Shown here: positions 4,986 through 53,325 of the stretch, in pieces
Layout: each line of letters begins with the position of its first letter
How positions within the stretch are numbered: the stretch's first letter is position 1
From: an uncultured Clostridium sp.
GTDB lineage: Bacteria > Bacillota > Clostridia > Ch29
Assembly: GCA_964625335.1 (NCBI GenBank)
Contig: CAZVBE010000002.1
Location: forward strand, 36,689 to 100,688
Direction: 5' to 3'
DNA length: 64,000 nt
Translations under genes and position numbers: made by a program
Notes under the pieces: generated by a model
Database searches by the model: none
What the model saw: only the letters and a program-made list of their open reading frames with translations
What the model was told of the DNA's origin: nothing

Positions 4986-5016
4986 TATCAACGGTGTGTC
5001 CCCCTACCCGAAAGAC

Positions 5017-5035
5017 TATCAATCGGGGACATTCC
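5017..5035 (+). repeat. dispersed short repeat unit TATCAATCGGGGACATTCC (copy A)
   Basis: Near-identical copies at 62009-62035 and 63313-63341. Each is preceded by CCCG-NRAG and flanked by GGTGTGTCCCC/GGGGACATTCC-type inverted units (4987-5003, 5055-5071). Confidence 0.7.
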
Positions 5036-5097
5036 GTAATGAGGAATACCCGAATATCAACGGTGTGTCCCCATACCACTATAGAGGAGGTTATAGA

Positions 5098-12106: not shown

Positions 12107-13495
12107 ATGAAGAGTTTAATACCACTGGATGAAGCGTTAAACTACAGCAGAAAACAGGTCAGGGAAGGCTACAAACAATATGTCAACCCGGGGCTTGCCA
12201 ATATGCTGGCTCTCCTTGATTTTGACAAAAGGTTTATAAGGGCAGAAGGTGTACAGGTGTGGGACCAACAGGGAGAAGAATATCTTGATTTTCTCGGCGG
12301 TTATGGAGCCCTAAACCTGGGGCATAACCCTGAAGTTGTTATAGAAGCCGTGCAGAGGGTTGCGGACCTGCCTAATATACTGCAGGCTTCGTTAAATCCA
12401 CTTGCCGCCGCTTTGGCAGAGAATCTTGCCCGCATAACACCCGGTGATTTAAAGTATTCTTTTTTTTGCAACAGCGGTACAGAGGCAGTGGAGGCGGCCT
12501 TGAAAATGTCAAGGCTGTGCAGTGGAAAGAGCAGGATTTTGTATTGCAGCAATTCCTTCCACGGAAAATCCTTCGGTTCACTTTCGGTTACAGGCAGAGA
12601 CAAATATAAAACGCCCTTCGGACCAACGCTGCCCGATTGCCAGGGAGTGGAGTACGACAATCTTTCTGCGCTGGAAGAAGGGTTGGCGAAGAAGGACGTT
12701 GCTGCGGTTATAGTAGAGCCAATACAGGGAGAAGGGGGTATTATAGTACCCAGAGCCGGATATTTAAGCGGTGTCAGGGAATTGTGCGACAGGTACCAGG
12801 CGTTGCTCATAATTGACGAAATACAATCCGGACTGGGCAGAACCGGAAAGTATTTTGACTGCGAACACGAAAATGTGGTGCCTGATATTATGTGTCTGGC
12901 TAAATCGTTGGGTGGAGGGATAATGCCCATAGGGGCATGTATTGCTGCCGGAAAGGTGTATGATAAAGCATATGGCAGTATGGACAGGTGTCTGTTGCAT
13001 ACCTCTACCTTTGGGGGCAATTCAAGGGCAATGGCTGCGGGGATTGCAGCCCTCGGATACATAGTTGACAATCGACTGGATTTGAAGGCAAAGGAAATGG
13101 GCGATTATGCTCTGGAAAGGATGCGGGATATGAAGGATCGATACCCGCTTATTAAGGATATAAGGGGCAGAGGGCTGATGCTGGGGATAGAGTTTCACAG
13201 CGGGGAAGGTAGCCTGATTGACAGGCTGTCGGGCGGAACCGCTTCCCGGTTGGGCAGGGAATATATAGGGGCTTTGGTGGCCGGTGAACTGCTTAACAAA
13301 CACAGGATAATTACAGCCTATACCCTTAATAATCCCAATGTAATAAGGCTGGAGCCGCCTCTAATAGTTAGCAGGCAGCAGATAGATTATGTGATTGAAA
13401 GTCTTGCAAGTATTATGCAGGCAAACAAAGGTGCCTTTCAAATGGCTTTATCCGGCGTTAAGAGTTCGGTAACCGGTAAACTAAAGAAAAAGTGA
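12107..13495 (+). CDS. class-III PLP-dependent aminotransferase (ornithine/acetylornithine/putrescine-type)
   Basis: 462 aa with the DEIQSGLGRTGK PLP-lysine region and GG..P motif. Substrate specificity cannot be read from sequence alone. Confidence 0.8.
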   Translation: MKSLIPLDEALNYSRKQVREGYKQYVNPGLANMLALLDFDKRFIRAEGVQVWDQQGEEYLDFLGGYGALNLGHNPEVVIEAVQRVADLPNILQASLNPLAAALAENLARITPGDLKYSFFCNSGTEAVEAALKMSRLCSGKSRILYCSNSFHGKSFGSLSVTGRDKYKTPFGPTLPDCQGVEYDNLSALEEGLAKKDVAAVIVEPIQGEGGIIVPRAGYLSGVRELCDRYQALLIIDEIQSGLGRTGKYFDCEHENVVPDIMCLAKSLGGGIMPIGACIAAGKVYDKAYGSMDRCLLHTSTFGGNSRAMAAGIAALGYIVDNRLDLKAKEMGDYALERMRDMKDRYPLIKDIRGRGLMLGIEFHSGEGSLIDRLSGGTASRLGREYIGALVAGELLNKHRIITAYTLNNPNVIRLEPPLIVSRQQIDYVIESLASIMQANKGAFQMALSGVKSSVTGKLKKK

Positions 13496-21328: not shown

Positions 21329-22087
21329 ATGCCAAGAGGAGCAAGAAAGAAAAGCGAAAGCGGGATATATCATATTTTGTTGCGAGGGCAAAACAGGCAG
21401 ATAATTTTCGAAGATGATGAGGATAAAGAAAGGTTTATACAAACATTAAAAGACTGTAAAAACAAAAGCGGATGGAAAATATACGGATATTGCCTAATGG
21501 GAAACCATATTCATTTGTTGCTGCACGAATTTGACGAAGAAACAGGAATAATAATGCGGCGGATTGGCGCGAGTTATGTATACTGGTATAACTGGAAGTA
21601 TAAACGCTGTGGACACTTGTTTCAGGACCGTTATAAAAGTGAAGCGGTTGAAACAGAAAAGTATTTTTTAACAGTCCTTCGATACATACATCAAAACCCG
21701 GTAAAGGCTGGTCACGCAAAGAAGGCCCTGGATTATAAATGGAGCAGCTATAATGAATATATGAATAATAACGGGATAACGGATACCGGCTTTGCACTGG
21801 GCATTTTCAATGAGGACAGGGAAAAGGCGATTCAGAATTTCATAGATTTTCATAATGAACAAAAAGAAGCTAATTGCCTTGAAATGGAAGAGCGCTTCAG
21901 GCTGACAGATGAAGAAGCAATGGCCATCATAAAGGAGGAGTATTGCGTATCCAGTAGTTTGCAGCTAAAGGATTTTGAAAAAAAGAAAAGAGACATATGT
22001 ATAAAAGAGCTAAAAGATAAAGGTCTGTCGACAAGGCAAATAGAGCGGCTGACGGGGATAAGCAGATACATTATTCTGAAAATGTAA
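21329..22087 (+). CDS. Y1/HUH transposase, REP-associated tyrosine transposase-like (IS200/IS605 TnpA superfamily) with C-terminal HTH
   Basis: HuH motif GNHIHLLLHE and a downstream catalytic-Tyr region (DRYKSEAVE). The C-terminal LSTRQIERLTGISRYIILKM looks like an HTH. The gene is flanked by inverted REPs. Confidence 0.75.
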   Translation: MPRGARKKSESGIYHILLRGQNRQIIFEDDEDKERFIQTLKDCKNKSGWKIYGYCLMGNHIHLLLHEFDEETGIIMRRIGASYVYWYNWKYKRCGHLFQDRYKSEAVETEKYFLTVLRYIHQNPVKAGHAKKALDYKWSSYNEYMNNNGITDTGFALGIFNEDREKAIQNFIDFHNEQKEANCLEMEERFRLTDEEAMAIIKEEYCVSSSLQLKDFEKKKRDICIKELKDKGLSTRQIERLTGISRYIILKM

Positions 22088-24991: not shown

Positions 24992-25021
24992 TTGACGTAA
25001 TACCCAGGTATGAGTTATCAT
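24992..25021 (+). promoter_or_regulatory. putative promoter of the riboswitch-GGDEF transcript
   Basis: TTGACG (24992-24997), 18-nt spacer, TATCAT (25016-25021). Confidence 0.45.
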
Positions 25022-25032
25022 AGTGGTTAGTT

Positions 25033-25116
25033 GCATGAAAAAGGCAAACCTGACGAAAGTCAGGGACGCAAAGCTGCGAGTCTACGGTAATCTTACTACG
25101 ACAGTCGGGCTGCCAT
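25033..25116 (+). promoter_or_regulatory. c-di-GMP-I (GEMM) riboswitch aptamer
   Basis: GGCAAACC-TGAC-GAAA-GTCA-GGGACGCAAAGC..CGGGCTGCC matches the GEMM-I core. That core is GGCAAACC, a P2 stem with GAAA tetraloop, GGGACGCAAAGC, and a 3' G-rich closing strand. Compare the V. cholerae Vc2 segment GGGCAAACCAUUCGAAAGAGUGGGACGCAAAGCC. Confidence 0.75.
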
Positions 25117-25142
25117 AAGACATAATACATTAGTTTATGGCT

Positions 25143-25171
25143 GTCGTAGTTTAAGTGGCTACGACTTTTTT
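25143..25171 (+). terminator. riboswitch expression-platform intrinsic terminator
   Basis: GTCGTAG-tttaagtgg-CTACGAC then TTTTTT, ending one base before the ORF ATG. Upstream CTACGACAGTCGGGCTGCCATAAG can pair alternatively with CTTATGGCTGTCGTAG as an antiterminator. Confidence 0.7.
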
Positions 25172-25207
25172 ATGTTATTTCCGGACTATATGGAAGGGGA
25201 AAAAATC

Positions 25208-26323
25208 TTGCTACAGTTGGCTAGAACTCTTGTTTTTATGGAAATGCTGTTTATAAATTTGATAACCACGCACCGCTGTTCGCGGACAAGATATTCACAA
25301 AAGAGTATTACAGCAGGATTAATTTTTTATACGGCTTTGGTGATGTTGACTTCTTTTTTAATCAAGCGTAATCTTAGACTGGAGTTTCTTAACGGCAGTA
25401 TAATCATCTTACTGGGATTTACTTATTTTTTTCCATTAAAGTACTTGTATGATGAATCTTCAGGTAAAATTTTGGCTATCATGTTTTTTTCCTGGATTCA
25501 CACAATGGCTGTGACCTCTATATCTATACAGATTTCTATGCTGTTTGAATTGGACAATTATTTTTATCTGGCTCTTATATTACAAACCATAATCTATTTA
25601 GTCAGCACCCGGGCTGTAATACGTTTTGTAAAGAATAAGTTTATACCTATTTTGAAGAACATTCCGAAGGAAATGAACAAACACCTTATCGTACTAAGCC
25701 TGATGGAATTCACGTCTGTGACGATAGTCTATCTATTCTTTAACGAAAACGCAAATCCTTACTGGACAATAATAATAGTGGCACTGATAGCGTCAATAGC
25801 AGCGATAAACTACCATTTAATCTATGTAGTAGTTAAAAACTATAAAAGTATAAGCTTTTTAAAACTGCTTGCTTATTCGGATACTCTAACCGGTATCAAA
25901 AACAGACTGGCACTTTTTCTTGATTGCGATAAACTGATTTCCCAAAATAAGCCCTTCACTTATATATATATGGACCTGGATGATTTCAAAAAAGTAAATG
26001 ATACATACGGTCACTCTGTCGGGGATGATTATCTGAAGCAGTTTACCAAAGCAGCAATAGAAACGATAGGGGATAAAGGAAGCATCTACAGAATGTCAGG
26101 CGATGAATTTGTCTGTATATATAACGAAGACAAAATAGATTTATTACTGGCAACATTTGATGAAAAAGTTATGAACCTGTTTGAAATGAGCGTACCGTTC
26201 TTAGGAGTTAGTATTGGCTATGCAAAGTTTCCTGAAGATGCCGATTCGTTGGATAAACTTGTGAATAAAGCAGATAAAATCATGTATAAAGTCAAAAAAA
26301 CCAATAAACTCAAACCGATTTAG
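25208..26323 (+). CDS. membrane-anchored GGDEF-domain protein with SGDEF variant motif
   Basis: About 6 N-terminal TM helices, then a GGDEF domain whose signature reads RMSGDEFV (SGDEF). The start is uncertain: ATG 25172 has no RBS, TTG 25208 follows GGAAGGGG. Confidence 0.7.
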   Translation: MLQLARTLVFMEMLFINLITTHRCSRTRYSQKSITAGLIFYTALVMLTSFLIKRNLRLEFLNGSIIILLGFTYFFPLKYLYDESSGKILAIMFFSWIHTMAVTSISIQISMLFELDNYFYLALILQTIIYLVSTRAVIRFVKNKFIPILKNIPKEMNKHLIVLSLMEFTSVTIVYLFFNENANPYWTIIIVALIASIAAINYHLIYVVVKNYKSISFLKLLAYSDTLTGIKNRLALFLDCDKLISQNKPFTYIYMDLDDFKKVNDTYGHSVGDDYLKQFTKAAIETIGDKGSIYRMSGDEFVCIYNEDKIDLLLATFDEKVMNLFEMSVPFLGVSIGYAKFPEDADSLDKLVNKADKIMYKVKKTNKLKPI

Positions 26324-26436
26324 GCTATAATGAATATCTGCCACAAGGGAGATTACTGCCTTAATTTATCGGAGGCAGCAATGATATAATAATACTTAAA
26401 GATGGCTAATTCTTGTTTATGAAGGAGTGCCTGGCT

Positions 26437-28917
26437 TTGTTAACACAGCAGCATATTCTAAAACGTGAGCATATAATTACAGAGCTTGACAATGTTTTTG
26501 ACTATCCGATGACGGTGGCAGTAGCGGCTATGGGCTATGGGAAAACCACAGCGGCAAAAGCCTTCTTAAACGAGACCGGTGCAAAATATGCGTGGGTATC
26601 TGTCGAAGGTGACGAATCTTCACCCCAGTATATATGGAATTCCCTGGCGGGACAACTGGCAAAAACCATACCGGAGCTTGGTAATCAGTTTCGTGCTTTG
26701 GGCTTTCCCGCCGATGCACCGCAGAGGGATAAGATTTTAAAGATGATAGAAGATTATACTTATTTGACCAATACAGTACTGGTAATTGACGACTATCATT
26801 TTTCTCATTCTCCTGAGTTTGACAGGTTGCTTGAAAGAATTGTCCGATCAGGTATAGATGGTTTCCATATTCTATTGCTTTCAAGGACAATTCCCGAAAT
26901 GAATATTGATGAATTAATGCTTAAAGGTTATTGTTATATTATAAAGAATGGCTTGTTTGAGCTTAACAGGGATGAAATTAAGGAGTATTTTAAGCTATAC
27001 GGCTGCAATCTTTCTGAAGATACGGCAAGACGGATTCATGAGATATCGGAGGGATGGATATCGGCTGTATATCTGATTATGCAAAGATATATCGAAATAG
27101 GCAGGCTGGAGCCGGGGAGAAGCATTGAAAAACTGATTGAAACGGCCGTTATATCACGGTATACAGCCAGGGAAGTAATGTTATTAAAATCACTGTGCAT
27201 ACTTGACAGTTTCACTCCACAGCAAGCGGTGTATGTGACAGGCGATATGGAAGCAAAAAAAATTATTCAAAAACTGAGCAGTGGGAATTCCTTTATTCGT
27301 TATGATGCACAAGGTGATACATACAGGATTCATAATATTTTCAGCAATTATTTAAGGCAACTGATTGAGGAACAGCCATCTGATGTGCAGCTTGATAAAC
27401 TATATAAGCGTTCCGGTCAGTGGTGCATTCTTAATAATGATATTATTTCAGGGCTTAAGTATCTGTTGAAAGCAAAGGAATATGACCTTATACTGACCCA
27501 ATTTGAGAAGAGCAGTATAAACTTAGTTATAGACAACAATCCCGGATTTATATTGGAATTGTTTGAGAATATTCCTGTTGAGATAAAATACCGTCATCCC
27601 ATTGCCTATCTTGCCTATACAGGTTTCTACGTTACCAATGTTGACAAGGAAGCCGGTGCGCGCCTTTTGTCAAGAATCGAGCGGTATTACCAGAATGATG
27701 ATGGTATATCCCCTGAGATGAAAAAACGCATTTCAGGAGAGATAGAGCTAATAAAGGCCTACATTGGTTTTAATGATGCTGCCCTGATGCGGGAAAAGCT
27801 TGCCAAGGCCCACCGGATGCTGGAGGGACGTTCCTTTATCGCCAATAAGGATAAGATTATTACCTTTGGCTCTCCCCATTCATTATACCTTTATTACCGT
27901 GAAAAGGGTAAATTGATGTGGACCAGGGATTGCGTCGAGGAGATGTTTCCTTTTTACATGGAGATGGCAGATGGTTGTGGCAAAGGGTTTGATTGTCTGC
28001 TAAATGCTGAATACTACCTGGAAACCGGAAATGTCGCCAAGGCTGAACTTTACGCCTACAAAGCCATGTACAAAGCTAAAAGCATGGAACAGGTATCTGT
28101 CATTATATGTGCACAGTTGACACTTGCAAGGGTTTGTACTGCAAGGGGCAAGTTTAATGAAGCACTTGAAATCATGGATGATTTAAGCGAAGAGGTGGAT
28201 GCGTGCAACAGCCCTATTCTTAGCAGTGCATTTGATTTATGTACCGGTTATATGGGCGGGATAACCGGAAATGATACTTATTTTGCCAAATGGCTCAGGT
28301 CCGGGGATGTGGAGCAGAGTGAGGTTTTATATCAAGGTATGGGTTTTAATCATATTATCCATGGGAAATACCTTCTGCTAGAAAAAGAATATGTAAAACT
28401 AGAGGTTCTCTGTGAAGAAATGAGGCAGATTTTTTCTTCGTTCAACAACTTGTTAGGACATCTTCATATCCAAATATTGGATGCAGCTGCCAAATATAAG
28501 CTTTATGGCATGGAGAGTGCAAAATCCGCGATATTTCCTGCCCTTGGCATAGGCAAGACAGATGACATTGTACTTCCCTTTGCGGAATATGGAAAGTATA
28601 TTCTGGAAGTATTGAAAGAGCTGCAAAAGGATGACGGCAAAGACGAATATCTCAACAGGCTTGTGGCCTGTGCATCTCAGTATTGTGACAACCTGAAAAA
28701 TATGGAAGATATGCAATCGACAGCGTCTATGCTGACAAATCGTGAAAAGGAAATACTTGAACTAGTCGTAGAGGGCAAAACCAATAGGGAAATAGCATCA
28801 GGGCTTTTCATAGCCGAGGTTACTGTCAGAAAAAATATTACCTCTATCTACAGGAAACTGGATGTAACCGGGCGGGCATCTGCCGTTAAAAAAGCCATTG
28901 AACAGAAAATTATCTGA
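26437..28917 (+). CDS. MalT/LuxR-type STAND ATPase transcriptional regulator
   Basis: N-terminal P-loop AAMGYGKTT, a long helical/TPR-like middle, and a C-terminal LuxR HTH (EIASGLFIAEVTVRKNITSIYRKL). The start is uncertain (ATG 26419 or TTG 26437 after GAAGGAG). Confidence 0.75.
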   Translation: MLTQQHILKREHIITELDNVFDYPMTVAVAAMGYGKTTAAKAFLNETGAKYAWVSVEGDESSPQYIWNSLAGQLAKTIPELGNQFRALGFPADAPQRDKILKMIEDYTYLTNTVLVIDDYHFSHSPEFDRLLERIVRSGIDGFHILLLSRTIPEMNIDELMLKGYCYIIKNGLFELNRDEIKEYFKLYGCNLSEDTARRIHEISEGWISAVYLIMQRYIEIGRLEPGRSIEKLIETAVISRYTAREVMLLKSLCILDSFTPQQAVYVTGDMEAKKIIQKLSSGNSFIRYDAQGDTYRIHNIFSNYLRQLIEEQPSDVQLDKLYKRSGQWCILNNDIISGLKYLLKAKEYDLILTQFEKSSINLVIDNNPGFILELFENIPVEIKYRHPIAYLAYTGFYVTNVDKEAGARLLSRIERYYQNDDGISPEMKKRISGEIELIKAYIGFNDAALMREKLAKAHRMLEGRSFIANKDKIITFGSPHSLYLYYREKGKLMWTRDCVEEMFPFYMEMADGCGKGFDCLLNAEYYLETGNVAKAELYAYKAMYKAKSMEQVSVIICAQLTLARVCTARGKFNEALEIMDDLSEEVDACNSPILSSAFDLCTGYMGGITGNDTYFAKWLRSGDVEQSEVLYQGMGFNHIIHGKYLLLEKEYVKLEVLCEEMRQIFSSFNNLLGHLHIQILDAAAKYKLYGMESAKSAIFPALGIGKTDDIVLPFAEYGKYILEVLKELQKDDGKDEYLNRLVACASQYCDNLKNMEDMQSTASMLTNREKEILELVVEGKTNREIASGLFIAEVTVRKNITSIYRKLDVTGRASAVKKAIEQKII

Positions 28918-29017
28918 AATTCAACAAAAAAGTATCGCATGAGATAATATATTGTTTTTATAAACTCTGCTATGATTTTTATAGTGGGTTTTTTATTTGC
29001 ATTAAGGGGGAACAGAT

Positions 29018-29251
29018 GTGTCCAGGATTATAAGTATCATTCCTAATGACGACCATACACTGACTATAGAACTCGATAATTCCCATAAAATTGTCTACGA
29101 TATGAAGTCCAGGCTGGAGTCGGCCAGGTTCTGTGAACTTGCTGATATTAAAAAGTTCAAATCTGTAAAGATTGAAAACGGGAATACCCTTGTATGGAAT
29201 TACCTATGCCAGATTACAATTGATGAAATTATCAACATTGTTGAGAGATAG
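29018..29251 (+). CDS. DUF2442-like small protein
   Basis: 77 aa (..LTIELDNSHKIVYDMKS..). GTG start after AAGGGGGAA. Confidence 0.4.
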   Translation: MSRIISIIPNDDHTLTIELDNSHKIVYDMKSRLESARFCELADIKKFKSVKIENGNTLVWNYLCQITIDEIINIVER

Positions 29252-29305
29252 TGTTTTAATGCCAGGTCTGTTTTTAGGTGCGATCAATCTTTTGAAGGGT
29301 GATGA

Positions 29306-32300
29306 ATGATGAAAAAAAAGCTATTATGTATTTTGGGATTTTTATTATTCTTTGTTCTTATTAAACCTGTTTTTGCTTCCGGATCAGGTATCATAACCTT
29401 TAAATATGATGATTTTGCAAATCCCGGTTTAATTAAACTGGATGGTACGGATGGTTATGCCAGAATAATACACGATTCTTCTACAGGGAAAGATGTGATT
29501 AGGCTGACTCCTGCAGATAGTATTACAGCTGTCAGAGGTACTGCGTATTATAAAAATTATGTTTCTCTTGCAAACGATCGCTCTTTCAGTACTTATTTTA
29601 CTTTTAAAATAATTCCGATTGGCGAGGGTGCAGATGGTATTGTCTTTATATTAAATAACGATACCAACGAATTAGGTGGCGGTGGTGGCGGCATGGGGTA
29701 TGCCAATATGGATAATAGCATAGGTATTGAATTTGATACCTACGATAATAGCTACAATTGGGGGGGAGGTACGCCTTCCAATACGTATGGGGATGACGGA
29801 CTTGGTAATGGGCGGTATGGATTTAGTCATATGGCTGTCAATGTTAATGGTGATATCGATAAGCCGGTTGCTACTGCTTCTAATACGCAAATAGCCGATT
29901 ATACCGGCGAACCATGTAATTTCAAGAATGGACAATTACATCATGTGTGGATTGATTACGATGGCCCAAATTCTACTATAGAAGTGCGAATAAGCAAGGA
30001 TATAAACAGGCCTGATGAGGCTCTTATTACTTATGATGATCTTGACCTTAATAATATTTTGAAGCAAGACGAAGTTTATGTGGGATTTTCTGCATCAACC
30101 GGCGGAAGCAAGGAATCCCATGATATTTACCAGTGGTATTTTAATAATGATTTTACCCCTATAGACACAGCAGATAAAACTTATGTCTCTGCGCCATCAG
30201 TTAGTCTAACTGCTACTCCCGTTACTGATATAGAAACCACTCTTACTGCTGTATTGACAAACGCTGACGGTTCTTTGTCGCCCAATGAACAAGTGGCGTT
30301 TAGCACAAATTTAGGAACGCTTAGTGATACATCAGCTACTACTAATGAAGATGGCGAAGCAAGTGTTACCTTGATAAATGATACTAATGGCGGGGCTTAT
30401 GTCAAAGCAGCAGCAGCATACGGGGCTTATGATGAAGTTATAATGCCGCCCAATGTGCCGACACTTGAAGTCAGTACCACCACTTCCATTACCCTTTCCC
30501 CGATAGTTGATGCCGAATATAAAATGGATGATGGAGAGTGGCAGGACAGTAATCACTTTTCTGATCTTTCTATGAATACCGAGTACACATTTTATGCCAG
30601 AATGAAGGAAACCCCAACAAGTGCAGCGTCAATCGAAACCACCGGTGTAACTTTTGCGACATTGCCATATACAGTTACCTATAAAGGAAATGGTAATACA
30701 GGTGGCACAGCACCCAATGATTCCAGTCAATATGAATATGGAGCAACTGTAACTGTATTAGGACAGGGTGATCTGGAAAGGGCTGGTTATACATTTTCTG
30801 GTTGGGCTACCAATGCTGACGGAACCGGAACCACATATAAAGAAGATGATACTTTTTCTATGGGATCAGGAAATATTAACCTCTGGGCTAAATGGATAAT
30901 CAATGGGTACACTGTAACCTTCCTGGATCATGATGGAACACAATTAAAAACAGAAACAGTAGCACATGGAAACAGTGCAACGGCACCGGATGCTCCGACA
31001 AGAGAAGGTTATACCTTTACAGGCTGGGACAAAGCGTATGATAACGTAATATCTGATTTGGAGGTAACAGTCCAATACAATATTAATGAATACAAAGTAA
31101 GTTTCGCAAGTACTGGTGGAAGTGCAGTTGATTTCATCAAAGCGGATTATGGAACAACTATAACGGAACCAACAGTGCCATCAAAAGAAGGTTATACCTT
31201 TGGAGGTTGGTATAAGGAAGCGGGATTAATAAACCGGTGGAATTTTGAGAGCGATACAATTCCCGCAGAGGATATATCTCTATATGCGAAATGGGATACA
31301 GTTGACTATAGTATTACCTACAATCTTGATGGTGGGGCAAATAACGGAATCAATCCGTCAAGCTATACAATAGAAACTGATACAATAACCCTGTGTACAC
31401 CGACCAGGACCGGATACACATTTCTAGGGTGGTATGATGCACAGACAGATGGCAATAAGATATCAGATATAGTGAAAGGCAGCACCGGCGACAAGACTTT
31501 GTGGGCACGATGGATATCCAATGAAAGCCTCTGGATATCTGTTAACCCTGACATAGTTGCCGGCAGCATTAACTTTAGCCAGGAATTTGAACTAGCCCTC
31601 AATAATGATACAGTGGCAGGAACAGTTTATGCATCTGACATAACCCTTGGGGGTGTATTTGCAGGACTGGATATATCAGCGGTTGATAATACAAGCACAA
31701 CAGTTACTGCAGAGGTTTATGGTAACCTGAATAGCGAAGGGACAGGTACAATCACATTAAACGGCAGCAGGCTTAAAATAAGTACGAACGCATTAGCATC
31801 AGAAGTAACAGTTGGCCTTAATAAGGTAACCTATGACAGTAACGAAAGTACAGGGGGAAGCGTACCAACCGACAATAATAAATATGCACAAGAAGCAAGT
31901 GTTACAGTGCTTGGTAACATAGGCGGTTTAGAAAAAAGAGGATATAGTTTTGATGGATGGAATACAAAAAGTGATGGAAGTGGATATTCCTATAAAGCTG
32001 ATGATGTATTTAGTATGGGCGCAAACAATGTAAACTTGTACGCAATATGGAAACCGGCTATAGTAACGCGTCATAGGCCGTCAAGCAGAGGAAGTAGTAA
32101 TACGCCTTCGGCAGAAATACTCATCAATGGAAAAACAGAGGCTGCGGCTACTTCCAGTACAAAAACAGTTGATGATAAAACTGTTACGACTGTAGCATTA
32201 GACGACAGGATAGTAGAAGAAAAGCTTCAAAATGAAGGCAATAACGCTATGGTGACCATACCTGTCAAAAATACTTCAGATATAGTGATTGGACAGCTAA

Positions 32301-33358
32301 ATGCGCAGACCGTTAAAAATATGGAGGAGAAGGAGGGCGCACTGGAAATAAAAACCTGGAACGTGACTTATACGATTCCGGCATCGCAGATAAATATTGA
32401 TAAGGTTTCAGAACAGATTGGCAGAGAGGTTGCATTAGATGACATTTTAGTCAATATAGAAATATCCGTTCCGCCCGACGAAACAGTAGAAATTATTGAG
32501 GATACGTCAAACGCCGGCGGCTTTATGCTTGTGGCGGAGCCGGTGGGGTTTGAAATCAACTGTAGGTATGGAGACAGGGCTGTGGAGGTGTCGAGATTTA
32601 ACAGCTATGTGGAGCGCACCATTGCCATCCCTGAAGGGGCTGATACTTCAAAGATTACCACCGCCGTAGTGTTGAATCCTGACGGAAGCTTTTCCCATGT
32701 TCCGACAGCTATTGTTGAAATCGAAGGTAAATACTATGCAAAAATCAACAGCTTGACTAACAGCATCTACTCTGTCATCTATAATCCCAAGATATTCAAG
32801 GATGTTGAAAATCACTGGGCAAAAGATGCAGTGAACGATATGGGCTCAAGATTGGTTATCAGTGGAGTTGGTAAAGACAGGTTTGAGCCGGACAGGAATA
32901 TCACAAGAGCAGAGTTTACAGTAGTTGTAGTCAGGGCACTTGGTCTTATGCAGTATGAAACCGGAGAGGATGTCTTCAACGATGTTCCGAATAATGCATG
33001 GTATCACGATGCAGTTTCAGCAGCCTATGAATATGGCATAATAACCGGTTACGGAGACGGAAGGTTCGACCCTAACGACAAGATAACCCGCGAACAGGCT
33101 TTTACCATGATATCAAGAGCAATGAACATTACCAGACAAAAAGTTGAATTTCCATCCGGCGAGGTCGAAAAGCTTCTTGCAGGCTTCAGGGATTCTGACA
33201 AATCGGCAGCTTATGCGAAAAACAGTATTGCTTCATGCATTAAATCCGGAATTGTTTCCGGCAGGAATGGCAATCTGATAGCCCCAACAGATAACATCAC
33301 CAGGGCGGAAACTGCGGTGATGGTCAGAAGGCTGCTGCAGAAATCGAATTTGATATAA
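29306..33358 (+). CDS. S-layer homology surface protein with N-terminal legume-lectin-like domain, Ig-like region, Flg_new (Listeria-Bacteroides) repeats and three C-terminal SLH domains
   Basis: Signal peptide, then a concanavalin-like lectin region. At least five YTF[ST]GW..DGTG..Y..DD repeats follow. Three SLH repeats are present (FKDVENHWAKDAVNDM.., FNDVPNNAWYHDAVSAAYEYGIITGY.., FRDSDKSAAYAKNSIA..). Confidence 0.85.
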   Translation: MMKKKLLCILGFLLFFVLIKPVFASGSGIITFKYDDFANPGLIKLDGTDGYARIIHDSSTGKDVIRLTPADSITAVRGTAYYKNYVSLANDRSFSTYFTFKIIPIGEGADGIVFILNNDTNELGGGGGGMGYANMDNSIGIEFDTYDNSYNWGGGTPSNTYGDDGLGNGRYGFSHMAVNVNGDIDKPVATASNTQIADYTGEPCNFKNGQLHHVWIDYDGPNSTIEVRISKDINRPDEALITYDDLDLNNILKQDEVYVGFSASTGGSKESHDIYQWYFNNDFTPIDTADKTYVSAPSVSLTATPVTDIETTLTAVLTNADGSLSPNEQVAFSTNLGTLSDTSATTNEDGEASVTLINDTNGGAYVKAAAAYGAYDEVIMPPNVPTLEVSTTTSITLSPIVDAEYKMDDGEWQDSNHFSDLSMNTEYTFYARMKETPTSAASIETTGVTFATLPYTVTYKGNGNTGGTAPNDSSQYEYGATVTVLGQGDLERAGYTFSGWATNADGTGTTYKEDDTFSMGSGNINLWAKWIINGYTVTFLDHDGTQLKTETVAHGNSATAPDAPTREGYTFTGWDKAYDNVISDLEVTVQYNINEYKVSFASTGGSAVDFIKADYGTTITEPTVPSKEGYTFGGWYKEAGLINRWNFESDTIPAEDISLYAKWDTVDYSITYNLDGGANNGINPSSYTIETDTITLCTPTRTGYTFLGWYDAQTDGNKISDIVKGSTGDKTLWARWISNESLWISVNPDIVAGSINFSQEFELALNNDTVAGTVYASDITLGGVFAGLDISAVDNTSTTVTAEVYGNLNSEGTGTITLNGSRLKISTNALASEVTVGLNKVTYDSNESTGGSVPTDNNKYAQEASVTVLGNIGGLEKRGYSFDGWNTKSDGSGYSYKADDVFSMGANNVNLYAIWKPAIVTRHRPSSRGSSNTPSAEILINGKTEAAATSSTKTVDDKTVTTVALDDRIVEEKLQNEGNNAMVTIPVKNTSDIVIGQLNAQTVKNMEEKEGALEIKTWNVTYTIPASQINIDKVSEQIGREVALDDILVNIEISVPPDETVEIIEDTSNAGGFMLVAEPVGFEINCRYGDRAVEVSRFNSYVERTIAIPEGADTSKITTAVVLNPDGSFSHVPTAIVEIEGKYYAKINSLTNSIYSVIYNPKIFKDVENHWAKDAVNDMGSRLVISGVGKDRFEPDRNITRAEFTVVVVRALGLMQYETGEDVFNDVPNNAWYHDAVSAAYEYGIITGYGDGRFDPNDKITREQAFTMISRAMNITRQKVEFPSGEVEKLLAGFRDSDKSAAYAKNSIASCIKSGIVSGRNGNLIAPTDNITRAETAVMVRRLLQKSNLI

Positions 33359-33540
33359 CCGCGTCTTAAAAAGAGAATAGATAGCGTTTAAATAAAAGGT
33401 GTGTGAGTGTTTTAAACATACAGCATAGCATATTTTAAGTAAGAAGAAACAAAAATTTATAGAAAAAAGCAAACACGATGAAGGTAATGAGCACAAAGCT
33501 GCAACTGAAATTGGACAAAAGAATAGTAATATGGGCATAT

Positions 33541-33590
33541 AAATAACCGGCCAGGATGGTCTTTGCACATCCCGGCCGGTTATTTGTTTT
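33541..33590 (+). terminator. intrinsic terminator after the S-layer protein gene
   Basis: AAATAACCGGCC..GGCCGGTTATTT long hairpin then GTTTTT. Confidence 0.7.
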
Positions 33591-33721
33591 TGTACCGATA
33601 TTCTTTTTTTATGTTTATAACAGGTATATAACGGATATAAGTTCTTATGTGAAGAATAATTTCCCAAAATAATGATAATATTTAAAACTGCATTCAAACG
33701 ATATCTGTAAGGGGGCATACC

Positions 33722-35410
33722 ATGAAAATATCAACAAAGTTTGGCGGCATCATGCTGAGTATTGTATTGCTAACCGGATTTCTTATGATTTTTACAATTA
33801 ATTCCTTAAGTAGTATAAGCGGTATTATAAGTGAGCACCGGGACAGAAATACGCCTTTAATGATTACCTCGTTATCTTTACAAAAAGATATAATTCAGAT
33901 ACAGCAGTGGCTCACGGATATATCGGCCACCCGGGGAATGCCGGGCTTTGACGACGGGTTTGATATGGCATCGGATTACTATAATAGTGCAAAAGACAAA
34001 ATTAAAGTATTAAGGGAACTGGGAGTTGAAACTGAACTTGCAGATACTATTTCTAATGATTTGGATGAATTCTACCAGACAGGTATAGAAATGGCGAATA
34101 CATATATCGATGAGGGAACCGATGCCGGCAACATATTTATGGATATATTCGATCCCTATGCCGCAAGGATTGAAGATAGTGTCGGTGTTCTTTTGAATGA
34201 GGCGGATGAAGCTTTTAACAATGGAAACAGCATGATAGTTTTGAGTATTAATGATTTATATCAAAAATCTATAATCCTTTTCGGTATTGTTATTTTAATA
34301 AGTATCCTCTCTTTCTTTATTATTCAAAACCTTGTAATAAAACGTTTAAAAACGATGACCGGAATCTTTAAGGATATTTCAGAAGGAGAAGGGGATTTAA
34401 CCAAACGGGTTGACGTTAAATCAAAGGATGAAATCGGAAGCATGGCAGTTTATTTTAATAATTTCTCAGACACTATTCATAGAATTGTTTCTACGGTCAA
34501 AGAAGTTTCCGAAAAAGTAAGCAGGGCTTCAGAAGAGTTAACGGATAACTCTCATCACTCGGCTGCGGCTGCAGAAGAAGTGGCGCAGACCATAGACGAA
34601 ATTGCCAAGGGTGCAACAAGTCAGGCAGAAAATACTGTTGGAGGTTCCGAAGAATTGATGCATCTTGGAGAACTTATCGAAGAAAACAAAAGACACATCG
34701 AAGTATTTATGCAATTATCAAGCAGGATAAATGGACTGGTAAGCCAGGGGCTCAATATAATTGATAAACTGACATTGACGACTGAAGAAAGCAGCAGCGC
34801 GGCAAACAGTGTCTATCAGAGCATAATGAAGACCAATAAGAGTTCTGAGAAAATAAGCGAAGCAAGCAGCCTTATCACATCTATTGCAGAGCAGACAAAT
34901 CTGCTTGCATTAAATGCGGCTATTGAAGCAGCCCGGGCAGGGGAACACGGGAAGGGTTTTGCTGTGGTGGCGGAAGAAATAAGGAAGCTTGCCGAAGAGT
35001 CGACGGATTCCACAAAGGTTATTGATGATATGATAAAGAACTTGCGTCAGGACGCAGCCCAGGCGGTGGAAATCATGAAAAGGGTGGAAAAGATTCTTAA
35101 GGAGCAGTTTGAGAGTGTTAGTACCACCGAAAGCAAATACAGGGAGATTGCTGAGGAAATGGACAAGTCAAAAGAAACCGTGCAAACAATAAACCAGACC
35201 GGCATACAAATGGAACAAAAGAAGAATGGAGTGCTGGATACCATTCAAATGCTTTCATCAATAGCGGAAGAAAACGCAGCAGCAACCGAGCAGGTTTCCG
35301 CATCTATACAGGAACAAACAGCTTCCATTGAAAAAATCGCAAACGCAAGTGAAAGTCTGTCCGAGTTGTTCCGGGAGCTTCACTCGACAATCGAAAGATT
35401 TAAAGTATAA
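33722..35410 (+). CDS. methyl-accepting chemotaxis protein
   Basis: Two TM helices bracketing a periplasmic domain of about 150 aa, then HAMP and the MCP signalling domain (..[32 protein letters not shown]..). Confidence 0.85.
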
Positions 35411-35657: not shown

Positions 35658-38039
35658 ATGGGAAAAGACTATTTGGAACGTATAGAATACCTGAAAAGGC
35701 GGGTAGTAAACACCAGACCCGAAATAGACCTTGAGAATGCCAGGATCCTGACAAAAAGCTTTATAGAAACCGCAGGAGAGCCTCTGGCTGTTCGTAAGGC
35801 AAAGGCATTTCGCAGGCAGTGCGAGGAAAAGACGGTTAAAATATGGGAAGAAGAGCTTATAGTCGGCTGTTCGGGAAGTAAGATGCGGGCAGGGATTTTG
35901 TGCGCCGATACATGCTGGTCGATACTTGACGATGAACTTGATACAATCAGCACCAGGAAATATGATCCGTTTTATTTAACCGACCAGGACAGAAAAACAT
36001 TTCAAGAAGAAATTAAACCCTTCTGGAAAGGACGTTCCAATTATGAAGCTTGGCAAAAACAGATTCCTGAGGATACGAAGGTTCTAAGGGATAACGGTGT
36101 GGTTTATATAAACCGCAAGGCGGTACGCGGCTGGGGCGAAACAACCGCCGGCTATAGTCAAATCATTGAAGAAGGCGTTGTGGGTATCCGCAAAAACATT
36201 GAAAAGCGGAAAGCCGGGCTGGACCTTACAGTGCCGGGGGATTATGAAAGGGACTGTTATTTGGAGGCTATGCTTATTTCGGCAGAGGGGATTGAAATTT
36301 TAGCGAAGCGGTATGCAAAAGAAGCCGAAAGGCTGGCTGTTCTTGAAGAAGACCCGGTCAGAAAAGCTGAGCTGGAGATAATCGCGAGAACATGCTATCA
36401 CGTGCCCAAGTATCCTGCGAGAACTTTCAGGGAAGCGCTTCAGTCTCTATATCTATATCAAATATGTATTTTTATGGAGCAAAACGCCGCCAGCTACAAC
36501 CCCGGAAGAATGGACCAATACCTGTATCCATATTACAAAGCCGATTTGGATGAAGGAAGGATTACCCGGGATAAGGCCCAGGAGCTGCTTGACTGTCTGT
36601 GGGTCAAGTTCAGCGAGCCGTGCCTGTTCCAGGATGCACAAACTGCGGAGTTTGCCGCCGGATATCCCATGTTCCAGAACGTATGCGTGGGCGGGGTGGA
36701 TTCTACCGGCAGAGATGCCGTGAACGATTTGTCATATATGATTTTGCAGGCGACGATGGATGTAAGGCTATACCAGCCGTCCCTGTCGGTCAGGTACAGT
36801 CTTTCAAAAAATCCGAACAAGTTTTTGAGAAAGGTGATAGAGCTTATAAGGTTAGGCACAGGATTTCCGGCGTTCCATAACGACGATATCGGAATCCGCA
36901 TGGTTATGAATAAAGGAATCCCGTTAAAAGAAGCCTACGATTGGAATCCCTGCGGCTGCGTTGAAACCAATCTGGAGGGGCGGCTGCGCCACTATACCGC
37001 TTTGGCGGATATTAATCTGGGAAGTATCATTGAATTTGTAATGCTAAACGGCCGCAACAAAAAGAGCGGATTATATATTTCTGAACAAACCGGCAATCCT
37101 GTCACGTTTAAAACCTATAAAGAGTTTGAAGACGCAGTCAAAAAACAGCTTTCCTATGCCGTACGTGCAGTTGTTAAAGGAAGCCACGTTATAGATGAGG
37201 TATGTATGGATAGGCCCGTTCCGGCACTGTCTCTTACATTCAGGGAATGTGTGGAAAAGGCAAAGGATTATGCGCACGGCGGTGCCAAATATAACACCGG
37301 CAACGGCATAATACTGATTGGAGTAGCCGATTTAATCAACAGCTTAGCCGCCGTAAAAAGTATGGTATACGATACCAAACAGGTAACTATGGAACAGCTT
37401 GTTACGGCATTAGAATCTGACTTTGAAGGATATGAACGAATCCATAAATTGTGCAAGGACGCACCGAAATACGGAAATGATGACGACACGGCAGATGATA
37501 TAGCCGGTGAAATCTTTACCTTTATTGCAGACGAGATTGAAAAATATCACAGTAAATTTGGCCGTATGACACCGGGTATTCTGCCGGTTTCGGGGAATAC
37601 GCCCTTTGGCCTGGAAGTAGGTGCACTGCCTTCGGGACGCCGCGCATGGAAACCCCTGGCGGATGGGGTAAGTCCCAATGGCGGTACTGATTTCAACGGG
37701 CCCGGAGCAGTTCTTAAATCCGTTGCCCACATTCCCCATGACCGTTTTGTACAGGGAACATTACTGAATATGAAAATAGAGCCGGCGCTGTTGGCAAGCG
37801 AAAACGGTATTATTCAGATGATGGCACTTTTAAAGAGCATGTGCAGCCTGGGTATCTTTCATGTCCAGTTCAACGTAATTGACCGCGATGTATTGATTGA
37901 GGCGCAAAAGCATCCGGAAAAGTACAAGGGGCTTTTAATCCGGGTTGCGGGATACACCGCATATTTTGTAGAGCTCGGGAAGGACGTTCAGGACGAGATT
38001 ATCGGCAGGACTGTCCAATCGGGAATTTCGGCGGGATAG
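35658..38039 (+). CDS. glycyl radical enzyme, single-Cys eliminase type (glycerol dehydratase / HypD / CutC clade), substrate unknown
   Basis: 793 aa. Gly-radical motif LIRVAGYTAYFVEL near the C-terminus. Active-site loop NPCGCVETN has Cys-x-Glu rather than the PFL Cys-Cys. Confidence 0.85.
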   Translation: MGKDYLERIEYLKRRVVNTRPEIDLENARILTKSFIETAGEPLAVRKAKAFRRQCEEKTVKIWEEELIVGCSGSKMRAGILCADTCWSILDDELDTISTRKYDPFYLTDQDRKTFQEEIKPFWKGRSNYEAWQKQIPEDTKVLRDNGVVYINRKAVRGWGETTAGYSQIIEEGVVGIRKNIEKRKAGLDLTVPGDYERDCYLEAMLISAEGIEILAKRYAKEAERLAVLEEDPVRKAELEIIARTCYHVPKYPARTFREALQSLYLYQICIFMEQNAASYNPGRMDQYLYPYYKADLDEGRITRDKAQELLDCLWVKFSEPCLFQDAQTAEFAAGYPMFQNVCVGGVDSTGRDAVNDLSYMILQATMDVRLYQPSLSVRYSLSKNPNKFLRKVIELIRLGTGFPAFHNDDIGIRMVMNKGIPLKEAYDWNPCGCVETNLEGRLRHYTALADINLGSIIEFVMLNGRNKKSGLYISEQTGNPVTFKTYKEFEDAVKKQLSYAVRAVVKGSHVIDEVCMDRPVPALSLTFRECVEKAKDYAHGGAKYNTGNGIILIGVADLINSLAAVKSMVYDTKQVTMEQLVTALESDFEGYERIHKLCKDAPKYGNDDDTADDIAGEIFTFIADEIEKYHSKFGRMTPGILPVSGNTPFGLEVGALPSGRRAWKPLADGVSPNGGTDFNGPGAVLKSVAHIPHDRFVQGTLLNMKIEPALLASENGIIQMMALLKSMCSLGIFHVQFNVIDRDVLIEAQKHPEKYKGLLIRVAGYTAYFVELGKDVQDEIIGRTVQSGISAG

Positions 38040-38088
38040 AAAAACATTACAGCTGTCCGAAAACAATAATAAAAGTAAGGAGAAAAGA

Positions 38089-38874
38089 ATGGACATATCA
38101 GGCAGAGTATTGCGGATAGAAAAAACTTCAATATATGACGGGCAGGGGCTTCGGACGGTTGTATTCCTGAAGGGGTGTCCGTTAAGGTGTAAATGGTGCT
38201 CGACGCCGGAGGCACAAAACTTCGAAGCCGAATTCGGATATGGAACAGATATGACTGTATCAGAGGTGGTTGAGGAGATTTCCAAGGATGAAATATTCTT
38301 TTTCCATTCCGGCGGCGGCGTGACCATAAGCGGCGGTGAAGTATTGGTCCAGGAGGATTTTGCAGCAGAAATACTGAAAGAATGTTTAAAAAGAGGAATT
38401 CATACTGCGATTGAATCCAGTTTCTACTCAGACTATGGACGAATTGAAAAACTAATGCCGTACCTGAAAGCTGTCTATGTGGATATAAAGCATATGGACG
38501 ATAAAGCCCACAGGGCATGGACCGGCGTTTCCAATACAAAAATCCTGGAAAACATACACCGGCTGGACCGATCGTGTTATCCTGCAGAAGTCCATGTGCG
38601 CATACCTGTTATTCCGGGGATTAATAATGGCGAGGAAAACCTGTTGGCGGTTACAGGATTTTGTCAGGGCCTTAAAAAATTACGTGATATTGAACTGCTG
38701 CCCTATCACAGGCTCGGAATCAATACTTACAAGAAAATGGGTAAAGAATATGAACTGATGGATGTGAAGCCCCCTTCAAAGGAAACCCTGCATAAGTGTG
38801 CAGAATTTATGGCAAATCACGCAAAGGGTTTAGAAATCATAGCAGGCGAAAAAGTCTTTGCGTCTAGGGATTGA
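38089..38874 (+). CDS. glycyl-radical enzyme activating enzyme (radical SAM), short PflA-like form
   Basis: CPLRCKWC radical-SAM motif at the N-terminus and a glycine-rich SAM motif (GGGVTISGGE). Only 261 aa, with no additional CxxCxxCxxxC ferredoxin insert. Confidence 0.85.
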   Translation: MDISGRVLRIEKTSIYDGQGLRTVVFLKGCPLRCKWCSTPEAQNFEAEFGYGTDMTVSEVVEEISKDEIFFFHSGGGVTISGGEVLVQEDFAAEILKECLKRGIHTAIESSFYSDYGRIEKLMPYLKAVYVDIKHMDDKAHRAWTGVSNTKILENIHRLDRSCYPAEVHVRIPVIPGINNGEENLLAVTGFCQGLKKLRDIELLPYHRLGINTYKKMGKEYELMDVKPPSKETLHKCAEFMANHAKGLEIIAGEKVFASRD

Positions 38875-52955: not shown

Positions 52956-53325
52956 TATACAAAAACCGTCATGATTAACGGCTTTATCCACAGTTTTGAT
53001 TGAAATTGGGAATTTTTTGTTATATAATGGCTTTATTTAAACTATGCATTTTGTCAGAATATGTTTATAATAATTATTGCCGGGTATTAATGGAGCAACA
53101 TTATCTAAAAAGACTGTTTATTAATTAAAACACAGCTATAACCATCTGATCTAAAGGCTTGCGGAACAGTCACAATCACGAAGACCTCCTTCAACATCAC
53201 AGGGACGAACATATAAAAATGCGGTCTGGTATAAAGTCGAATGTGCTCTTAACAGGTAAGATACTTAAAGTTAGATTATTGAGTGCCTGCGTTCTGTGCT
53301 ATGGCACGAAGGGGCTGGTCAAACA

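Follow-up and report, generated by a model that had tools for sequence, protein, structure and literature searches.

A conserved cassette of a MalT-type regulator, DUF2442 and mostly giant surface proteins in Bacillota, with a diguanylate cyclase as its facultative neighbour

When a riboswitch for cyclic di-GMP (c-di-GMP), a diguanylate cyclase, a STAND regulator and a giant surface protein are encoded side by side on one strand, do they form one signalling pathway? The question is raised by a stretch of 64 kb from an uncultured Clostridium sp. (the window; all coordinates below are positions in it), and the block studied here extends from 24992 to 33358. A first-pass annotation had read this block as an axis leading from c-di-GMP to adhesion, and Rfam and Pfam searches recover every element it listed: the riboswitch, the SGDEF cyclase, the STAND/LuxR regulator, a DUF2442 gene and the lectin/SLH giant protein, as well as a PAS-GGDEF-HD-GYP protein 20 kb away, which is the open reading frame (ORF) 53296-55533. 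The genes of the block do lie on the same strand, but this co-orientation says nothing, since the first 43 kb of the window have all their gene-like ORFs of 150 aa or more on the + strand. We consider it reasonably probable that the block consists of three adjoining transcription units, the second encoding an activator with its operator in the third, and that it is not one pathway. The part of the proposed axis that links the regulator to the surface protein is strong, with a recurrent gene order and a conserved operator and promoter behind it; the link from c-di-GMP to the adhesin is weak and facultative, and the c-di-GMP input does not hold as it was stated.

The regulator is encoded at 26413..28917 (+) and is a MalT-type STAND NTPase with a C-terminal LuxR/GerE helix-turn-helix (HTH). 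These domains had been named correctly, while the length of 834 aa given for the protein is probably 826 aa: the likely start is TTG 26437, behind the ribosome-binding site (RBS) AAGGAG, and the orthologues are 826 aa long. In Pfam the AAA_22 match is weak and the HTH match is clear (PF00196, 7e-16, 58 bits, residues 773-827); TPR_MalT is matched weakly, at 28.8 bits and under the Pfam cut-off of 45, and WHD_MalT (PF25873) is on record for an identical protein. Residues 5-324 match the E. coli MalT chain 8bob_C (E=3.7e-11), the HTH matches that of GerE (1fse, E=3e-11), and the Walker A (AMGYGKTT) and Walker B (VIDDYH) motifs are invariant or nearly so in 20 homologues. The domain order follows that of the MalT/LAL family: the NTPase at the N-terminus, then a winged helix of the MalT type, a possible TPR-like sensor arm and the C-terminal LuxR/GerE HTH. 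Judging from this architecture and from the homology to MalT, the protein would bind ATP and an inducer, assemble in an ATP-dependent manner and activate a promoter that carries a palindrome.

The regulator belongs to a large and closely conserved family. Database clusters at 51-77% identity number more than 120 and are spread across Bacillota, among them Desulfitibacter, Desulfosporosinus, Geosporobacter, Gracilibacter, Anaerovorax, Maledivibacter, Pelotomaculum and others, and the nearest named relatives are in Desulfitibacter sp. BRH_c19 (76%) and Geosporobacter ferrireducens (63%). A scan of a genome collection with the regulator protein alone as the query returned 2 loci only, and an alignment-based metagenome scan found 494 stretches that encode relatives and added 80 loci, with identities down to 24%. 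The ORFs of these loci (numbered with an L below) were screened with profiles built from the window proteins. Tandem or multiple MalT-like paralogues also occur on single contigs (L035 5560-10768, L091 3758-13908 and L078), and many different cassettes come from several of the metagenomes, which agrees with genomes holding multiple paralogous cassettes insulated from one another.

What surrounds the regulator in these relatives is conserved in a specific way. Of 74 non-redundant loci, 39 have a DUF2442 gene adjoining it, with regulator identities as low as 25%, and so do 29 of the 41 loci with sufficient flanking sequence; the DUF2442 gene usually follows directly downstream and sometimes lies upstream in divergent orientation. 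The same succession of regulator, DUF2442 and lectin/SLH giant protein is seen in L001, L006 and L011 (Desulfitibacter sp. BRH_c19), where the closest homologues of the window's surface protein, at 76-77% identity over the lectin/Flg_new part, stand behind the same two genes. Surface cargo other than lectins takes the third place in L066, L094 and L026. In L008 (Geosporobacter ferrireducens IRF9), where the regulator is 63% identical, the next genes are those of an SLH-anchored S8 subtilase (1642 aa) and of DUF2442, and then comes an ORF of more than 1400 aa. The genes upstream of the regulator differ from locus to locus: divergent two-component genes in L001 and a sugar-kinase/LacI/ABC cluster in L011.

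The size of the cargo can be put in numbers. A cargo ORF of at least 1000 aa is found in 17 of the 29 loci that have DUF2442 and adequate flanks, compared with 5 of 375 among the remaining ORFs there. The domains found in the cargo are SLH, Flg_new, Big_2, lectin, LRR_5, Laminin_G_3, fn3, FG-GAP, Kelch, autotransporter and S8. The regulator, DUF2442 and, as described below, the promoter geometry form a cassette that is widespread in Bacillota, and the cargo is its variable part, in most cases a giant surface protein.

In the window this cargo is the protein of 1350 aa encoded at 29306..33358 (+), 54 nt downstream of the DUF2442 gene, which is predicted to be secreted and anchored by SLH domains. 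Pfam bears out the description first given of it: a lectin head (Lectin_legB, residues 31-287, 110 bits), an Ig-like Big_1 region, five Flg_new and three Flg_new_2 stretches, and three SLH stretches (128 bits). At the N-terminus, the sequence MMKKKLLCILGFLLFFVLIKPVFA|SG has the appearance of a Sec signal peptide. The lectin domain is similar to legume lectins (E=3e-9), with their ADG, GGG, EFDT and H motifs conserved, and these motifs make it plausible that the protein binds carbohydrates at the cell surface. The signal peptide, lectin head, Ig-like and Flg_new regions and three C-terminal SLH domains are shared with the SLH/InlB-B-repeat/L-type-lectin proteins of Bacillota, and lectin-bearing homologues shuffle in further domains such as fn3, Laminin_G_3 and Cu_amine_oxidN1. 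A strong intrinsic terminator at 33540..33591 (+; free energy -28.9 kcal/mol, z=-4.9, followed by TTTGTTTTTG) ends the operon of the DUF2442 and lectin genes. Near lectin/SLH giant-protein genes we also observe 7TMR-DISM domains, in histidine kinases in L001 (3781-5817) and L007 (7919-9889) and in a GGDEF protein in L026 (532-2265); this recurrence hints at a carbohydrate-related input.

Evidence for a control by the regulator also comes from the DNA in front of DUF2442. We refer to the loci orthologous to the window cassette as group A, and to other DUF2442 subfamilies with different palindromes as groups B, C, D and E. When the 100-150 nt before DUF2442 are aligned for 7 orthologous loci, they show an almost invariant A-run, the element TATCnCATGnGATA(AT), a spacer of exactly 24 nt and TGCTATGAT, with TATC..AT..GATAAT invariant in all 7. 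In the window the palindrome reads TATCGCATGAGATA (28933..28946, +), and we propose it as the site of the regulator's HTH dimer. The pattern TATCNNATNNGATAAT is present in a single copy at each orthologous locus, with the exception of Geosporobacter, which has two, and the operator pattern has one exact match in the 64 kb of the window. Of the two Geosporobacter copies, at 12489-12560 and 17731-17800 of L008, one stands before the SLH-subtilase gene and one before DUF2442. The element is also found in L094 and in L100, a Desulfosporosinus orientis-type locus, and since L100 retains it although a SnoaL/PDZ-like gene takes the place of DUF2442, the element goes with the regulator.

The 24-nt spacer leads to an extended -10 element, TGCTATGAT (28968..28976, +), conserved and predicted to belong to an activator-dependent promoter from which the DUF2442 and lectin genes are transcribed. 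All group-A loci retain T-A-T-x-x-T at the fixed gap from the palindrome, the centre of which lies 31 nt before the -10 hexamer in the window. Other subfamilies show this geometry too, with different palindromes. These are TATACnnnnGTATA in group B, TCACCCnnnGGGTGA in group C, TAACCTTTGGTTA in group D and CCCCCATATGGGGG in group E, and the layout is the same in all five subfamilies: the distance from the palindrome centre to TAnnnT is 30.5-31 nt in 20 of 38 loci, compared with a mean of 1.7 and a maximum of 6 in shuffled sequences. The recognition-helix region of the HTH differs as well, TVRKNITS in group A, TVKKALQS in group B and TVKTQLKS in group C, and thus operator sequence and recognition helix change together between subfamilies.

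The distance of 30.5-31 nt places the dyad near -43.5, which fits the site of a class-II LuxR-type activator. This position is classical for LuxR-type activators, the lux box being centred at -42.5: in the class II promoters of LuxR and TraR a dyad bound by a dimer of GerE-type HTH domains overlaps the -35 region, and the promoter relies on its -10 element. The likeness lies in the position of the dyad, 30.5-31 nt before the -10 hexamer. The differences are that LuxR and TraR sense through a domain that binds acyl-homoserine lactones, where the regulator here has a STAND ATPase, and that here the -10 lies inside the terminator hairpin of the upstream gene. Compared with MalT, the promoter is alike in having no conserved -35 element, which MalT-dependent promoters also do without, and different in having a single palindrome of 14-18 bp centred near -43.5 in place of arrays of asymmetric MalT boxes. 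Unlike MalT, the regulator here also has a dedicated, co-inherited DUF2442 gene and a giant surface protein as its cargo, not a sugar regulon. From a conserved site at the class-II distance we infer that the regulator binds the palindrome, and that the outcome is activation rather than repression.

The hairpin that covers the -10 element (28962..28997, +; -8.7 kcal/mol, z=-3.6, with a T-run) can be read as the terminator of the regulator gene. In group A AAACTCTGCTAT pairs with ATAGTGGAGTTT and a T-run follows. In orthologues that have the regulator gene upstream on the same strand the hairpin is strong, at -17 to -29 kcal/mol, and in L016 it carries the compensatory change from CTC/GAG to CCC/GGG. 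No such hairpin is found where DUF2442 and the regulator are transcribed divergently (L050, L022 and L023), although the spacing between palindrome and hexamer is kept there. The simplest reading is that the terminator of the upstream gene has been laid over an activator-dependent promoter. The palindrome itself was considered as an RNA hairpin and ruled out, since the changes in its arms in L011, L009, L008, L066 and the window are not compensatory. In L016 a group-A operator with its hairpin lies upstream of the regulator gene (231-640), followed by a 105-aa ORF that resembles the remnant of a repeat surface protein, and this cassette may have undergone rearrangement or decay.

The first gene of the proposed regulated operon encodes DUF2442 (29018..29251, +; 77 aa; PF10387, 27.7 bits compared with a cut-off of 23.9). 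In its orthologues the start codon, an ATG, GTG or TTG, has the same place and is preceded by an RBS of the GGAGG type, and an alignment of the copies linked to a regulator has 38 members. Because DUF2442 adjoins the regulator while the cargo varies, it tracks the regulator and not the cargo. DUF2442 would be the first product of the activated operon and is co-inherited with the regulator, and its most likely role is to act back on the regulator as a feedback partner, either an anti-activator or a co-activator. In one locus (L009, 12921-13495) two overlapping ORFs after DUF2442 match regions 2 and 4 of sigma-70, as if the gene of an ECF-type sigma factor had been split, either by a frameshift or through an error in the assembly.

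Put together, the second unit (26382-28997) would produce the regulator from its own promoter, an extended -10 read from the sequence as TGATATAAT (26382..26390, +), and would end at the hairpin and T-run. Equivalent elements lie upstream of the orthologous regulator genes: TGATACAAT, TGATAAAAT, TGGTATAAT and TGATATAAT in L006, L008, L094 and L100, respectively. The third unit (28933-33591) would be driven from the promoter without a conserved -35, in which the 14-bp palindrome near -43.5 is bound by the HTH dimer of the second unit's product, and would yield DUF2442 and the secreted, wall-anchored lectin/Flg_new/SLH protein. The MalT-type regulator thus probably switches on both the DUF2442 gene and the giant surface lectin.

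How does the first unit (24992-26323), with its riboswitch, relate to this cassette? A predicted sigma-70-like promoter (TTGACG, an 18-nt spacer and TATCAT; 24992..25021, +; 10/12 matches in a consensus scan) lies 12 nt upstream of a c-di-GMP-I (GEMM-I) aptamer (25034..25118, +; Rfam clan CL00126, 75.5 bits, E=4e-16). The best Rfam model for the aptamer is that of the c-di-GMP-I-GGC variant (RF03167, threshold 59 bits), which we take to be defined by a G in place of the A at position 47; the overlapping match of the clan with a lower score is suppressed by the program. This identity is ruled out, since position 47 is an A in the cmscan alignment: the window reads GGGACGCAAAGC where the model consensus reads GGGACGCGAAgC / GGGACGCGAAGC, and the mismatch falls on that very column. 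The same alignment puts a G before the GC of P1a, an A after GGGACGC and a C before the 3' strand of P1. These correspond to G20, A47 and C92 in Vc2 numbering, the nucleotides that contact the ligand in the published structures, and with A47 next to G20 and C92 the pocket is therefore the canonical one of an ordinary c-di-GMP sensor. Automated annotation by Rfam clan competition would mislabel this aptamer as the rare GGC variant.

The direction of the switch can be predicted from the alternative folds of the leader. An antiterminator helix (25096..25149, +), in which 25096-25113 pair with 25132-25149 through 11 core pairs, sequesters both the P2 3' strand of the aptamer and the 5' arm of an intrinsic terminator (25143..25171, +; terminator scan; a 9-bp stem, the loop TAAGT and T6) that abuts the annotated ATG at 25172. 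For transcripts ending at 25150 and 25158 the antiterminator is the minimum-energy structure (-36.0 and -37.2 kcal/mol), and for the full-length leader it is aptamer plus terminator (-48.5 kcal/mol, z=-4.4); in the thermodynamic modelling the antiterminator is preferred until the 3' arm of the terminator has been transcribed. A ligand-stabilized aptamer frees 25139-25149 for the terminator, and c-di-GMP should therefore lower cyclase expression. Specifically, the riboswitch is predicted by this modelling to be an OFF switch that gives feedback control of the cyclase gene only: when c-di-GMP is bound, transcription would terminate and cyclase synthesis would be limited.

The gene behind it encodes a predicted membrane-anchored SGDEF diguanylate cyclase (25172..26323, +; GGDEF domain PF00990, 2.7e-28, 99 bits). 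The likely start is TTG 25208, which gives 371 aa, is preceded by the RBS GGAAGGGG and is where the orthologues begin; 5-6 hydrophobic segments fill the N-terminal 205 aa. Among about 55 full-length orthologues at 35-67% identity the SGDEF motif and the catalytic D/K/N/D/GH..GD/R residues are kept, and SGDEF, not GGDEF, with D268, K273, N276, D277, G284-D285 and R307 is retained in nearly all of about 22 orthologues examined by residue. Enzymes with SGDEF can be active. No RxxD I-site is found in the cyclase (GDKGSIYRMSGDEF) nor in the ~55 full-length orthologues, and because of this lack, feedback at the level of RNA is a sensible substitute, which suggests that it stands in for allosteric feedback by the product. 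IS200/IS605-type Y1 transposase genes lie near the cyclase in the window (21329-22087, +) and in L095 (11955-12716), and one is found in L004 (42-800); the annotation of one regulator homologue, P0212 (1103 aa), includes a Y1_Tnp domain.

The riboswitch goes with the cyclase and not with the cassette. The closest cyclase orthologue for which context is available (L095, 64% identity) has a riboswitch (RF01051, 68.5 bits compared with a threshold of 35) with a comparable expression platform, and no regulator cassette is found near it. No riboswitch was found at three further cyclase orthologues (L094, L096 and L098), and an Rfam scan of 10 cassette loci found no c-di-GMP riboswitch in them. The association of c-di-GMP riboswitches with genes of c-di-GMP turnover is a known theme (PMC7266159). 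The window's riboswitch differs in nothing essential from the GEMM-I riboswitches before GGDEF and EAL genes, with which it shares the clan, the G20/A47/C92 pocket and an intrinsic terminator as its platform. In Clostridioides difficile the adhesins CD2831 and CD3246 and the type IV pili are reportedly under the control of c-di-GMP riboswitches. The shared theme is c-di-GMP together with a wall-anchored surface protein in a clostridial organism; the difference is that the C. difficile riboswitch is said to sit in the leader of the adhesin mRNA, whereas none precedes the surface-protein gene in the window or in the 10 related loci.

These results bear directly on the axis as first proposed, in which c-di-GMP made by the cyclase is sensed by the STAND regulator or by DUF2442 and turns on the lectin adhesin. 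Such a scheme has precedents: c-di-GMP often controls adhesins, and both the LuxR-type regulator VpsT and the AAA+ protein FleQ bind it. There is also an association to be explained, since GGDEF ORFs occupy 5 of 131 positions immediately next to a cassette and 2 of 575 other positions (odds ratio 11, Fisher's p=0.003, with relatedness ignored and crude ORF calls). In L094, where the regulator is 71% identical and the cargo is an SLH/LRR_5/BclA_C protein, the cassette has an orthologue of the SGDEF cyclase two genes upstream. In L010 (1713-4760) a full GGDEF domain is fused behind the regulator's LuxR HTH, giving a protein of 1015 aa with a GAF-GGDEF gene upstream and no DUF2442 detected at that locus, and in L026 a 7TMR-DISM-GGDEF gene directly precedes a cassette with a 3073-aa SLH protein. 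L044 has a convergent PAS-GGDEF-EAL gene.

However, several points go the other way. The window itself is one of the five counts and skews the sample toward GGDEF adjacency. Conservation of the gene order among relatives, whose absence had been named beforehand as a refutation of the axis, extends to the regulator, DUF2442 and the giant protein and mostly not to a GGDEF gene: most cassettes have no such neighbour (L001, L009, L011 and L066), and in L008 the sole GGDEF ORF is about 8 kb upstream. Pfam shows no c-di-GMP-binding motif or domain, such as PilZ, in the regulator or in DUF2442. The riboswitch is predicted to act as an OFF switch, and on the cyclase alone. Finally, in L036 (12288-13888) the N-terminal half of DUF2442 (profile positions 1-37) continues in frame into a GGDEF-HD-GYP protein, and this ORF stands behind a group-B operator, -10 element and hairpin. 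The fusion looks like a recombination that put a c-di-GMP enzyme under cassette control, and because the enzyme lies downstream of the operator, it is an output of the regulator and not an input. We therefore regard the axis in its original form as unlikely. The association of GGDEF genes with cassettes is facultative but not random, and the arrangements in the window and in L026 are compatible with a c-di-GMP input or with simple co-location. In the three-unit reading the cyclase is a facultative neighbour, whose product may modulate the cassette or which the cassette may itself control.

The fusions and the adjacency also allow a broader proposal, which we hold to be somewhat less probable still: the regulator and DUF2442, with DUF2442 on the sensor arm, would be a hitherto unrecognized two-protein switch with giant surface proteins as its output and DUF2442 as the feedback partner, wired to c-di-GMP in some lineages, including that of the window. 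The wiring could take either of two forms: the STAND/DUF2442 pair senses the nucleotide, or the switch sets the local c-di-GMP level through GGDEF and HD-GYP enzymes that are fused or adjacent to it. If the sensing form were true, this would be the first c-di-GMP-responsive STAND regulator.

In the three-unit reading the domains, the conserved neighbourhood, the geometry of operator and promoter and the alternative RNA folds are results of computation, while the binding of the palindrome, its activating effect, the role of DUF2442 and any c-di-GMP input are inferences. A number of observations weigh against this reading. About 30% of the loci with adequate flanks have no DUF2442, and some cargo is small and not at the surface, namely a glutathione peroxidase (GSHPx), a nucleotidyl transferase (NTP-transferase) and an ankyrin protein. 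The ORF calls in the loci are crude, being the longest ORFs screened with home-made profile hidden Markov models. Sequence and profile searches of the PDB found no solved homologue of DUF2442, and the AlphaFold model from its single sequence is poor (pLDDT 61.5) and unfit for a fold search. (CyaY was rejected as a homologue: the PDB matches, at E about 0.5, are noise.) No terminator is found between the cyclase and regulator genes, so that some co-transcription from the riboswitch promoter is possible. The hairpin at the end of the regulator gene is weak in the window, and the first Geosporobacter operator copy, directly 3' of the regulator gene, keeps AAACTCTGCTATGTT but has no 3' arm of the hairpin, which the idea of an overlapping terminator leaves unexplained. 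Lastly, the GATAAT that overlaps the palindrome could be the -10 of group A, in which case a repressor would bind the palindrome and the hairpin would act as an attenuator in the leader.

This last possibility can be spelled out. The -10 would be TGnGATAAT at the palindrome, the palindrome would be the site of a repressor or autoregulator, transcription would start near 28955, and the hairpin with its U-run would attenuate it; read-through into the giant gene would then need a factor, possibly DUF2442 or the regulator. GATAAT with a TG two nt upstream is invariant in the 7 group-A loci, the hairpin and T-run are conserved across subfamilies with compensatory changes, and antitermination is common for very long genes, which often rely on it. 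However, group C keeps no -10-like hexamer at the palindrome and has TACAAT inside the hairpin in 10 of 10 loci. The divergent layouts keep the palindrome and TAAAAT at the same spacing without any hairpin, and the first Geosporobacter copy likewise retains its hexamer element without the 3' arm. The constant spacing of 30.5-31 nt also suits class-II activation. An attenuated leader is quite improbable on this evidence, and the same low probability applies to the need for a read-through factor.

More improbable again is a single long operon, running from the riboswitch promoter over 25030-33590, in which c-di-GMP would shut off the whole block including the adhesin. The genes share one strand, the gaps between them are short (90, 100 and 54 nt), and a simple scan finds no terminator in 26323-33358. 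However, the strand bias of the window voids the argument from co-orientation, and the simple scan overlooked both the hairpin 3' of the regulator gene and the strong terminator 3' of the lectin gene. The promoter of the regulator is conserved, as is the hairpin with its T-run 3' of the regulator gene, and the cassettes of relatives stand alone behind unrelated or divergent genes. What is possible, because the cyclase and regulator genes have no terminator between them, is a modest effect of the riboswitch on regulator dosage. Since the switch is predicted to be OFF, read-through into the regulator gene would fall at high c-di-GMP, and the effect would be negative there.

That the locus is a defence or toxin-antitoxin-like element, with the STAND NTPase as an Avs-like sensor and DUF2442 as the partner seen with DUF4160, is hardly credible: antiviral STAND (Avs) proteins are a known defence class, and the few mentions of DUF2442 in the literature are in toxin-antitoxin or defence contexts only, but PADLOC finds no defence-family match (only the HTH region of the regulator aligns, to CARF3 models, and DUF2442, the cyclase and the lectin protein have no match), the regulator has the architecture of a MalT/LAL transcription factor with a DNA-binding output and a cognate operator, the cargo consists of surface proteins and not of nucleases or other effectors, and the DUF4160 gene that defines the toxin-antitoxin-like pairs is absent both beside the window's DUF2442, where the neighbours are the regulator and lectin genes, and from the related loci with called genes. 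The cassette is neither a catalogued defence system nor a DUF4160/DUF2442 pair.

Elsewhere in the window, a T-box leader (4751-4961, +; RF00230, 124 bits) precedes a 913-aa ORF (4996-7737), presumably an aminoacyl-tRNA synthetase. A glycyl-radical enzyme (PFL-like and Gly_radical, 793 aa) and a radical-SAM activase are encoded at 35658-38874 (+), downstream of an MCP gene (33722-35410); a PFL-like/activase pair is also found near the cassette of L001, on the opposite strand.

The individual parts of the block are each of a known kind: a riboswitch on a cyclase gene, a MalT/LAL regulator and an SLH-anchored lectin/InlB-repeat protein. The cassette is apparently undescribed; a literature search did not find it, although the part of the search that concerned MalT-like regulators of surface proteins was blurred by the common word 'stand'. 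The features that we did not find described are the apparently obligate pairing of the regulator with DUF2442, the dyad operators that differ by subfamily and stand at a fixed class-II distance, the -10 embedded in the terminator of the gene upstream and the bias of the cargo toward giant surface proteins.

For the biology of c-di-GMP the result is mostly negative, the riboswitch being, by prediction, an ordinary autoregulatory OFF switch on a cyclase without an I-site, and the recurrent adjacency of GGDEF genes together with the two fusions is a concrete lead that can be tested. If the activator-operator model is true, it would give DUF2442 its first functional context and would define a large family of MalT-type regulators, with hundreds of members in Clostridia, Desulfotomaculia and their relatives. 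It would also provide predicted operators for five subfamilies, from which regulons could be read directly in genome sequences, and the joint change of operator and recognition helix may insulate paralogous cassettes within one genome. Very large surface proteins matter for attachment to polysaccharides, minerals and hosts, and the cassette would hint at how anaerobic Bacillota time the deployment of such proteins, including S-layer lectins, proteases and LRR/BspA-type adhesins.

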